This document shows, one piece after another, positions 21,304 to 21,780 of a DNA stretch of 64,000 nt (its first letter is position 1; each line of letters opens with the position of its first letter). This stretch comes from Candidatus Latescibacterota bacterium (GTDB taxonomy: Bacteria > Latescibacterota > UBA2968 > UBA8231), in NCBI GenBank assembly GCA_965261395.1, contig OZ253462.1:6485485-6549484 (forward strand), given 5' to 3'. The position numbers and the translations under genes are program-made. The notes below the pieces were generated by a model. The model searched no databases and was not told where the DNA came from. It saw only the letters and a list, made by a program, of their open reading frames with translations.

Positions 21304-21450
21304 TTATTTGATCGTGATCTCTATACAGCAGCAGCAGCAACAGCAACAGCTAGCTAAAACAGGCTTGTCAGAAGAACTGCCGTCAGAAGAATCGCCTTTT
21401 GCCGGCGACATATAGCCATCAAAGGGCTTCGATACGATTTTGAGCTTCAT
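21304..21450 (-). CDS. poly-Cys RiPP precursor B, 48 aa: MKLKIVSKPFDGYMSPAKGDSSDGSSSDKPVLASCCCCCCCCIEITIK
   Basis: Translated by hand (not in the ORF track); AAGGAG upstream of ATG; near-identical leader to precursor A. Confidence 0.9.
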   Translation of the reverse strand: MKLKIVSKPFDGYMSPAKGDSSDGSSSDKPVLASCCCCCCCCIEITIK

Positions 21451-21548
21451 CCTGCTTTACTCCTTGGGTTAGCCATCTGTTTTGTAGCCGGTTGAAATGC
21501 GACACAGCAGCAATGGGAGCAACAGCCGGCCGCTCTGTTCGCTTCCAT
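21447..21548 (-). CDS. candidate Cys-rich upstream mini-ORF B, 33 aa: MEANRAAGCCSHCCCVAFQPATKQMANPRSKAG
   Basis: Hand translation; TGA overlaps the ATG of precursor B (ATGA); no obvious SD. Confidence 0.4.
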   Translation of the reverse strand: MEANRAAGCCSHCCCVAFQPATKQMANPRSKAG

Positions 21549-21627
21549 GTTTTAGATACTGCTGATGATTTGAAGCACGGCTGAAGCCTCAGCGAAAATA
21601 AAAGCTAAATACGTGCTAAGAAGAATG

Positions 21628-21780
21628 TTAGTTAAAGAAAGACGTGGTCCCAGCGCAGCAGCAGCAGCAGCAGCAGCAGCTAGATGCAACAGGCTTGTCA
21701 GGAGATTCCTTGTCAGAAGAACCACCTTTTGCCGGCGACATATAGCTATCAAAAGGCTTCGATACGATTCTGAGTTTCAT
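21628..21780 (-). CDS. poly-Cys RiPP precursor A, 50 aa: MKLRIVSKPFDSYMSPAKGGSSDKESPDKPVASSCCCCCCCCAGTTSFFN
   Basis: AAGGAGG upstream of ATG 21780; (TGC)8 core; paralogue 330 bp away. Confidence 0.9.
   Translation of the reverse strand: MKLRIVSKPFDSYMSPAKGGSSDKESPDKPVASSCCCCCCCCAGTTSFFN

Follow-up and report, generated by a model that had tools for sequence, protein, structure and literature searches.

Tandem octacysteine precursor genes upstream of a predicted SagBCD-type azole peptide operon in a Latescibacterota bacterium

A 64,000-nucleotide stretch of a Candidatus Latescibacterota genome (here called the window; GenBank assembly GCA_965261395.1, contig OZ253462.1, positions 6,485,485 to 6,549,484) contains two small genes, precursor A and precursor B, that each encode eight contiguous cysteines (C8) and lie immediately upstream of genes for predicted azole-forming enzymes. 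Precursor A (21628..21780, minus strand) encodes a 50-residue peptide (MKLRIVSKPFDSYMSPAKGGSSDKESPDKPVASSCCCCCCCCAGTTSFFN) made up of the leader MKLRIVSKPFDSYMSPA, a Ser/Asp/Lys-rich linker, C8 and the tail AGTTSFFN. Precursor B (21304..21450, minus strand) encodes 48 residues (MKLKIVSKPFDGYMSPAKGDSSDGSSSDKPVLASCCCCCCCCIEITIK), with the leader MKLKIVSKPFDGYMSPA, a linker, C8 and the tail IEITIK. The Cys run of A (21655..21678, minus strand) is spelled (TGC)8, and that of B (21325..21348, minus strand) TGT TGC TGT TGC TGC TGC TGC TGT. Each gene has a Shine-Dalgarno sequence, AAGGAGG for A (21789..21795, minus strand; 8 nt before the ATG) and AAGGAG for B (21460..21465, minus strand; 9 nt before the ATG). 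A preliminary description of this DNA had reported the paralogous pair, its coordinates, the codon spellings and the strong Shine-Dalgarno sequences, and all of these were borne out when we reread the sequence. Residue identity between A and B is 15/17 in the leader, 11/17 in the linker, 8/8 in the core and 1/8 in the tail, where nucleotide identity is 11/24.

The two genes belong to a tandem duplication of ~330 bp (21300..21960, minus strand; 88% mean column identity), each unit of which consists of a 5′ region and a precursor gene and includes ~150 nt of sequence upstream of that gene. Two matches to (TGY)8 are present in the window and none arose in 100 shuffles of it, and the A and B sites are the only runs of at least seven TGY codons in the entire 6.55-Mb genome. 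At 48 aa, B falls short of the usual 60-aa floor for open reading frames (ORFs), and our own ORF listing shows A only as a 75-aa ORF that starts at an upstream TTG. Contigs from two other studies (X6 and X13) cover both Cys runs of this species and leave them unchanged, in a comparison where rare variants are hidden within contigs and where the A run (21655..21678) is uncovered in X8 and X12. Judged by sequence, A and B are real, tandemly duplicated precursor genes. Separately, contigs from the same samples diverge at 21721..21787 into other linker sequences beside a Cys run, indicating that related strains or species with different precursors coexist in those samples.

Directly downstream of the precursors lie nine genes on the same strand, separated by gaps of a few bases. 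The first encodes a ThiF/E1-like C protein (19942..21060; PF00899, 40 bits against a cut-off of 28.1), which matches TIGR03603 and TIGR03882 below their cut-offs and has MccB as its best PDB match. It is followed by a 267-aa protein with a weak nitroreductase/SagB likeness (19109..19912; TIGR03605, E 3.5e-5) and a SagB-type flavin mononucleotide (FMN) dehydrogenase (18155..19105; TIGR03605, 149.7 bits against a cut-off of 78.4). Each of these two proteins matches a different half of the tandem nitroreductase 3eo7 (residues 151-237, E 0.056, and residues 332-497, respectively), which suggests a two-domain dehydrogenase that is split, with the 267-aa protein probably forming the partner of SagB. 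Next come an ABC-2 (DrrB/SagH-like) permease (17344..18117) and a YcaO cyclodehydratase, or D protein (15871..17334; PF02624, E 6.3e-44), whose C-terminus, ...PGPFPFP, fits the P-x-P-x-P motif of this group. A CPBP (CaaX-like) intramembrane protease (15127..15855) contains EExxxR, FxxxH and HxxxN, the motifs of its family. The last three genes encode a DrrA-type ATP-binding cassette (ABC) ATPase with a C-terminal TPR-like domain at residues 340-562 (13451..15139), a TonB-dependent receptor with an N-terminal CarboxypepD_reg domain (11198..13444, starting 6 bp past the ATPase gene), and a predicted secreted TPR protein with a signal-like N-terminus (10400..11176).

Four of the features by which linear peptides containing azol(in)es (LAPs) and thiazole/oxazole-modified microcins (TOMMs) are recognized are present: a YcaO D protein, an adjoining E1/ThiF-like C protein, a SagB-type FMN dehydrogenase and an adjacent small leader-core precursor. 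The adjoining C protein, SagB and YcaO genes uphold the earlier assignment of A and B to an azole-forming pathway. When the nine operon proteins were scanned against Pfam and NCBIfam, the CPBP protein was the sole protease identified, and there was no match to a PatA/PatG- or TlsS/TlsT-like peptidase or to a macrocyclase; the Pfam scan also found no pentapeptide-repeat immunity gene in the operon.

In a peptide profile search, we found the leader family in 20 of the 30 other genomes of the genus and in one of 137 other genomes of the phylum (G104, with the core CCSHCSHCSNC); all members sit at the same locus. We extracted 34 family peptides from 20 genomes, in a table that omits the 3-kb loci of G003 and G104, both of which were counted separately. 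Across the 34 peptides the leader is near-invariant (consensus MKL.IVS[KN].F..[YH][MI].PA), and the linker and core are variable. The ATG and ribosome-binding site are kept in 34/34 homologues, with AAGGAG in all of them and AAGGAGG in 32. The leaders of both A and B contain F10-x-x-x-M14, and five of the 34 homologues have F-x-x-x-I. Among 1.84 billion representative proteins, only eight matched at E ≤ 1e-10 (P0113-P0115, long or repetitive proteins with E > 1e-10, were excluded), and a scan of metagenome contigs added one further locus, of C5 type. One C8 peptide among the representative-protein and metagenome matches is identical to a G013 peptide, and the others have C5, C6 and interrupted cores; the same core types are found in the ten homologues beyond the 34. 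YcaO proteins with more than 70% identity fall into about 55 clusters. The precursor family adds to the azole-peptide class, and it is missing from curated models and near-missing from called proteins. The portions of the literature available to us do not describe it, and the supplementary tables of PMC4603692, PMC9426513 and PMC11832590 might list it.

The preliminary description took the shared C8 as a sign that eight cysteines are under selection, and this holds for part of the family. The longest Cys run ranges from two to nine across the 34 peptides: eight in 11, nine in one, six in one, five in eight, four in seven, three in two and two in four. Within a contiguous-Cys subgroup of six species (G000, G018, G028, G012, G001 and G013), C8 is found in 11 of the 12 peptides and C9 in the other, and the runs have at least six synonymous codon spellings. 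C8 is conserved within a subtype, and is not a family-wide constant. Cores in relatives include CCSCSCSSCC, C5 or C6 flanked by Gly runs (G8-C5, G8-C6 and C5/C6-G7 designs), and Cys/His or Cys/Asn cores (CCCCHCHC, CCCCCHCHCC and CCCNCNCC), so that the heterocyclizable, Cys-rich block spans 5 to 11 residues in a family with the same enzyme set.

In a tree built from the joined sequences of C protein, 267-aa protein, SagB and permease, genomes cluster by core type with support of 100/100, and both C8 groups fall into one clade with the C5/6-Gly group. Since core variation tracks enzyme phylogeny, run length does not drift freely as it would by slippage; Cys number does vary among homologues, but not in the free manner that would have undercut the earlier claim. 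Core type and enzymes seem, from these trees, to co-evolve. The parE+parC tree has a different topology. Compared with this genome, G018 is the most divergent in its topoisomerase subunits (ParE 90.8%, ParC 84.9%) and the most similar in its biosynthetic genes (91-95%), with the closest C protein (91.1%). The conflict between the two trees suggests that the cassette, precursors included, moves or recombines within the genus, and G018 seems to exemplify such exchange between lineages. The natural series of C8, C9, C6, C5, Cys/Ser and Cys/His cores, made by co-evolving enzymes, could be used to probe how many contiguous thiazoles a YcaO/SagB pair installs, and what the tail does.

The tails of A and B had been called unrelated. 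They are indeed dissimilar to each other, at one of eight residues, but they share 11 of 24 nucleotides and are not orphans: G018 encodes the tails AVTSSF (like that of A) and VDITFN (like that of B) in the same order. Elsewhere in the family, the tail AITVY is kept at 30/30 residue identities over four species, as against 68/127 for the linker of the same peptides, and ATIEIx is kept at 32/36 among orthologues. Conservation between G000 and G018 is lower (4/8 for the A type and 2/6 for the B type). The tails are not random, and each has an orthologue in another species.

These data bear on the proposal, made in the preliminary description, that the tail is a removable follower and that leader and tail are both lost before eight azoles are joined head to tail, giving a single telomestatin-like macrocycle from A and B. 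Each precursor has exactly eight heterocyclizable residues in its run, the length of the TlsC core CTTSSSSS (PMC5469769, in the part available), and two differing tails would be disposable. Further points of likeness to telomestatin and cyanobactin-like macrocycles, as far as the accessible text of PMC5469769 and PMC11575548 goes, are an all-heterocyclizable core of eight residues, a YcaO protein with an FMN oxidoreductase, and a short C-terminal extension. The tls cluster, by the same partial source, depends on two peptidases, TlsS and TlsT, and also on TlsO and TlsR (PMC5469769), whereas the operon has the CPBP protein as its sole protease, no TlsS/TlsT or PatA/PatG homologue, and no counterpart of TlsO or TlsR. 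The core is all Cys rather than Ser/Thr-rich, and its length is not fixed: one orthologue is C9, and blocks of 5 to 11 residues occur with the same enzymes. Tail conservation above that of the linker also argues against disposal. The likeness to telomestatin lies only in the number eight; we regard a macrocyclic product as quite improbable, and the follower proposal found no support in this comparison.

A different kind of doubt is whether A and B are translated at all, or are a CAG/CTG-type simple repeat within a duplicated regulatory region. The sequence upstream of the first precursor is itself conserved: an untranslated region of ~150 nt (21781..21930, minus strand) shows ~90% nucleotide identity across 21 sequences. 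Its consensus fold has compensatory changes in 0/32 pairs and a folding z of -0.73, and Rfam gave no match at E ≤ 1 across 20900..22400. This region also reads as a Cys-rich mini-ORF (MEANRAAGCC.HCCCVAF..., at 21810..21881 and 21447..21548, minus strand) resembling a leaderless core. We rejected the MEANR...CC.HCCC frame as a gene, because 1-nt indels shift it to Ala- or Val-rich frames in several species, so that conservation here is at the nucleotide level. Such a spurious ORF, along with the absence of any gene-caller product from a large protein collection in a word-index search, would fit an untranslated repeat. A and B behave differently from the mini-ORF, however, keeping frame, ATG, ribosome-binding site and leader in 34/34 homologues with synonymous change, and eight representative family proteins have been called in other data sets. 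We consider an untranslated repeat extremely improbable.

Upstream of unit A is a sigma-54-type promoter-like site, TGGCATGTTTTTCGCT (21936..21951, minus strand), which fits the sigma-54 -24/-12 consensus with one deviation and would put a transcript start near 21925. The copy in unit B (21603..21618, minus strand) reads TAGCAC...TAGC and has lost the GG. We found a single match to TGGCA[CT]G-N4-TCGC at each locus, lying about 155-170 nt ahead of the first precursor. At least 21 sigma-54 activators are encoded in the genome, all of them outside the window. Between precursor B and the C-protein gene is a 17-bp stem-loop (21163..21200, minus strand) present in 20/20 loci, whose lower 10 pairs are never broken and which shows double-sided changes in two pairs. 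Stem-loops between precursor and enzyme genes are frequent in operons for ribosomally made peptides that are modified after translation (RiPPs), and this one may be a transcript-stabilizing or attenuating element. At one locus (G009; L034, 5130..6557) the spacer between precursor and C protein is 1428 nt, compared with 93-260 nt at the other loci.

We favor, with moderate confidence in the whole chain of reasoning, the interpretation that A and B are precursors of a SagBCD-type LAP/TOMM pathway that would make two linear poly-thiazole congeners. In this pathway, the sigma-54-type promoter upstream of A would probably drive transcription through both precursors, then the stem-loop, then the enzyme genes. 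The invariant N-terminal 17 residues, including the F-x-x-x-M/I motif, would dock on the ThiF-like C protein; YcaO would cyclodehydrate the eight cysteines, and the SagB dehydrogenase with its putative 267-aa partner would oxidize the cyclized cysteines to thiazoles. The CPBP protease would trim the peptide and the DrrAB-type ABC transporter would export it, yielding two linear products distinguished by a short tail that is hydrophobic and beta-branched. We infer the chemistry of every step, the places of cleavage and the biological role, which we take to be that of a secreted membrane-active or antagonistic peptide. Readable directly in the DNA are the genes and their order, their conservation, intact catalytic motifs, and the co-variation of core type with the enzymes.

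We prefer this interpretation because of the gene content, tight packing and synteny of the cluster and the invariant leader and ribosome-binding site; because precursors and C protein co-occur and the enzyme tree follows core type; because C8 is kept in 11/12 contiguous-Cys peptides with varied codons; and because the P-x-P-x-P end of YcaO and the CPBP motifs are intact. None of five same-genus genomes lacking the peptides yielded a C protein. A complex prediction from the C-protein and precursor alignments, run without controls, gave scores of 0.25 and 0.17 against a mark of 0.32, and we weigh it on neither side of the question of binding. In addition, the cluster composition fits the cytolysin group as described in the available part of PMC4603692: a discrete cyclodehydratase, a dehydrogenase, an ABC transporter and a CaaX-like protease in one cluster. 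A hallmark of this group is a contiguous heterocyclizable block followed by a variable C-terminus (PMC4603692 and PMC4513790, as far as the accessible text goes). Of the two outcomes that the preliminary description had offered, two linear congeners appears the better; the gene set fits linear streptolysin-S-like clusters (PMC4603692, in the part available).

The sagA-I clusters, as described in the portions available, share with this operon a discrete ThiF-like C protein, a YcaO D protein, a SagB dehydrogenase, a CPBP protease and an ABC-2 exporter, as well as a small precursor (sometimes two) with an N-terminal leader, a contiguous heterocyclizable block and a variable C-terminus. Here, by contrast, the dehydrogenase is apparently divided between two proteins, the ATPase carries a fused TPR domain, a TonB-dependent receptor, a secreted TPR protein and a sigma-54-type promoter are added, and the host is an uncultured Gram-negative Latescibacterota bacterium. 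The cytolysin core rule, Gly followed by at least 10 contiguous heterocyclizable residues (PMC4603692, in the part available), does not describe A, which has SSC8 (10 residues) after Ala, or B, which has SC8 (9 residues) after Ala. Neither precursor matches a known model, with no NCBIfam family hit by A or by B at E ≤ 0.01, and the TIGR03604 score of YcaO, 205.9 bits, is just under the SagD cut-off of 219.25. On these three grounds membership of the cytolysin group is not established, and the operon architecture appears closest to that of streptolysin-S-like linear azole peptides.

The missing precursor models and the YcaO score also weigh against the pathway that we favor, as do several further observations. 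A word-index protein search with A gave no match, and plasmid-borne YcaO relatives found by tblastn are all below 30% identity and lie in generic uncharacterized TOMM clusters. The C protein is known to bind an FXXXB leader motif in which B is a branched-chain residue (PMC2676033), and in most family members the motif ends in Met instead. Receptor and secreted TPR genes are in no LAP cluster described in the accessible portions of the literature, and their presence in the operon hints at uptake rather than pure export. Finally, the His- and Asn-containing cores of relatives hint at metal binding.

The last two points lead to the main rival, which we consider unlikely: that the product is a metallophore-like peptide whose Cys- or Cys/His-rich core, with or without azol(in)es, binds metal outside the cell and returns through the TonB-dependent receptor and the periplasmic TPR protein. 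In 18/18 same-genus loci that are long enough (the 19th, L041, stops inside the YcaO gene and is outside this count), the receptor and signal-bearing TPR genes point the same way as the exporter and are closely packed with it, and relatives have the cores CCCCHCHC and CCCCCHCHCC. We also observed that the secreted TPR protein and the ATPase C-terminal domain (13451..14122, minus strand, residues 340-562) are paralogues, with 43% identity (E 3e-64), with one copy predicted to be periplasmic and the other cytosolic; this would suggest one ligand handled across the membrane. Yet in G030 and G006 the receptor and TPR pair adjoins an unrelated cassette with a C39 peptidase and a GG-type peptide, and so is not specific to poly-Cys peptides. 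The dehydrogenase would moreover convert the thiols to thiazoles, and these bind soft metals poorly. No subfamily match of the receptor is informative, and our literature search found no YcaO-made metallophore.

Cys-repeat azole precursors are already a known idea, since faecalisin, a predicted Enterococcus TOMM family, has precursors in which a Cys repeat comes after a Gly repeat (PMC4603692, in the part available). Compared by description only, relatives of A and B share this design in their G8-C5, G8-C6 and C5/C6-G7 cores. A and B themselves have no Gly run, and the faecalisin description, in the text available, names no CaaX protease and no outer-membrane receptor.

The Gly-run and Cys-run cores of relatives also recall Gly-rich azole peptides such as a microcin-B17-like topoisomerase poison would be, and parE and parC lie divergently upstream of the precursors in 19/19 loci, where they might be the target or a resistance allele. 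Microcin B17 is likewise a LAP whose synthesis takes a C protein, a D protein and a dehydrogenase and whose export takes an ABC transporter, and the SagB protein weakly matches its McbC in the PDB (E 5.4e-4). PF00521, however, occurs in just two genes of the genome, namely gyrA and this parC, and the neighboring parE/parC therefore encode the sole, housekeeping topoisomerase IV; for the same reason we rejected parE/parC as a resistance copy. Both genes are conserved at about 90-97%, above the biosynthetic genes, and they stay in place where a different cassette fills the locus. The operon also differs from that of microcin B17 in core design and has no McbG-type or other pentapeptide-repeat immunity gene. 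A topoisomerase poison is, in our estimate, very improbable.

The gene order from a DEAD helicase to parC is common to all 19 same-genus loci that we fetched. Three other same-genus genomes (G030, G026 and G006) have a different cassette between the DEAD helicase and parE, with the same conserved promoter region (L091, 7854..15555; L092, 7863..15497; L093, 2392..10286). This alternative cassette encodes transglutaminase-like and GT2-TPR proteins, a C39 peptidase domain, a 90-aa peptide with a ...DIKGG motif, a second CPBP protease and Yip1; in G030 and G006 the receptor and TPR genes are retained beside it. The presence here of a bacteriocin-like cassette, marked by its C39 peptidase, GG-leader peptide and CPBP protease, fits a locus for secreted peptides. 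In G014, ~9 kb of other genes fill the same interval (L094, 1926..10955) and match neither cassette by tblastn.

A more speculative reading, to which we give little credence, is that the interval between DEAD helicase and parE is a fixed sigma-54-type expression site for swapped secreted-peptide cassettes, in which the C8 cassette is held at an exact octa-thiazole length. Two homologous TPR modules, the one on the cytosolic ATPase and the secreted one beside the receptor, would handle its peptide, which would be exported and then re-imported as a shared metal carrier or kin signal in a host-associated community, rather than act as a simple toxin. Two sponge-microbiome surveys note Latescibacterota for biosynthetic potential (PMC9426513, PMC11832590); in the portions available they do not mention this cluster, which their supplementary tables might list. 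The pairing with a receptor and TPR protein and the cassette-swapping locus are a new context for the azole-peptide class.

On the parE side of the locus, we observed a second promoter-like site, TTGACA-17-TATATT (22158..22186, plus strand), within a 34-nt block that is invariant over five aligned loci. This site probably serves parE and points away from the peptide promoter.

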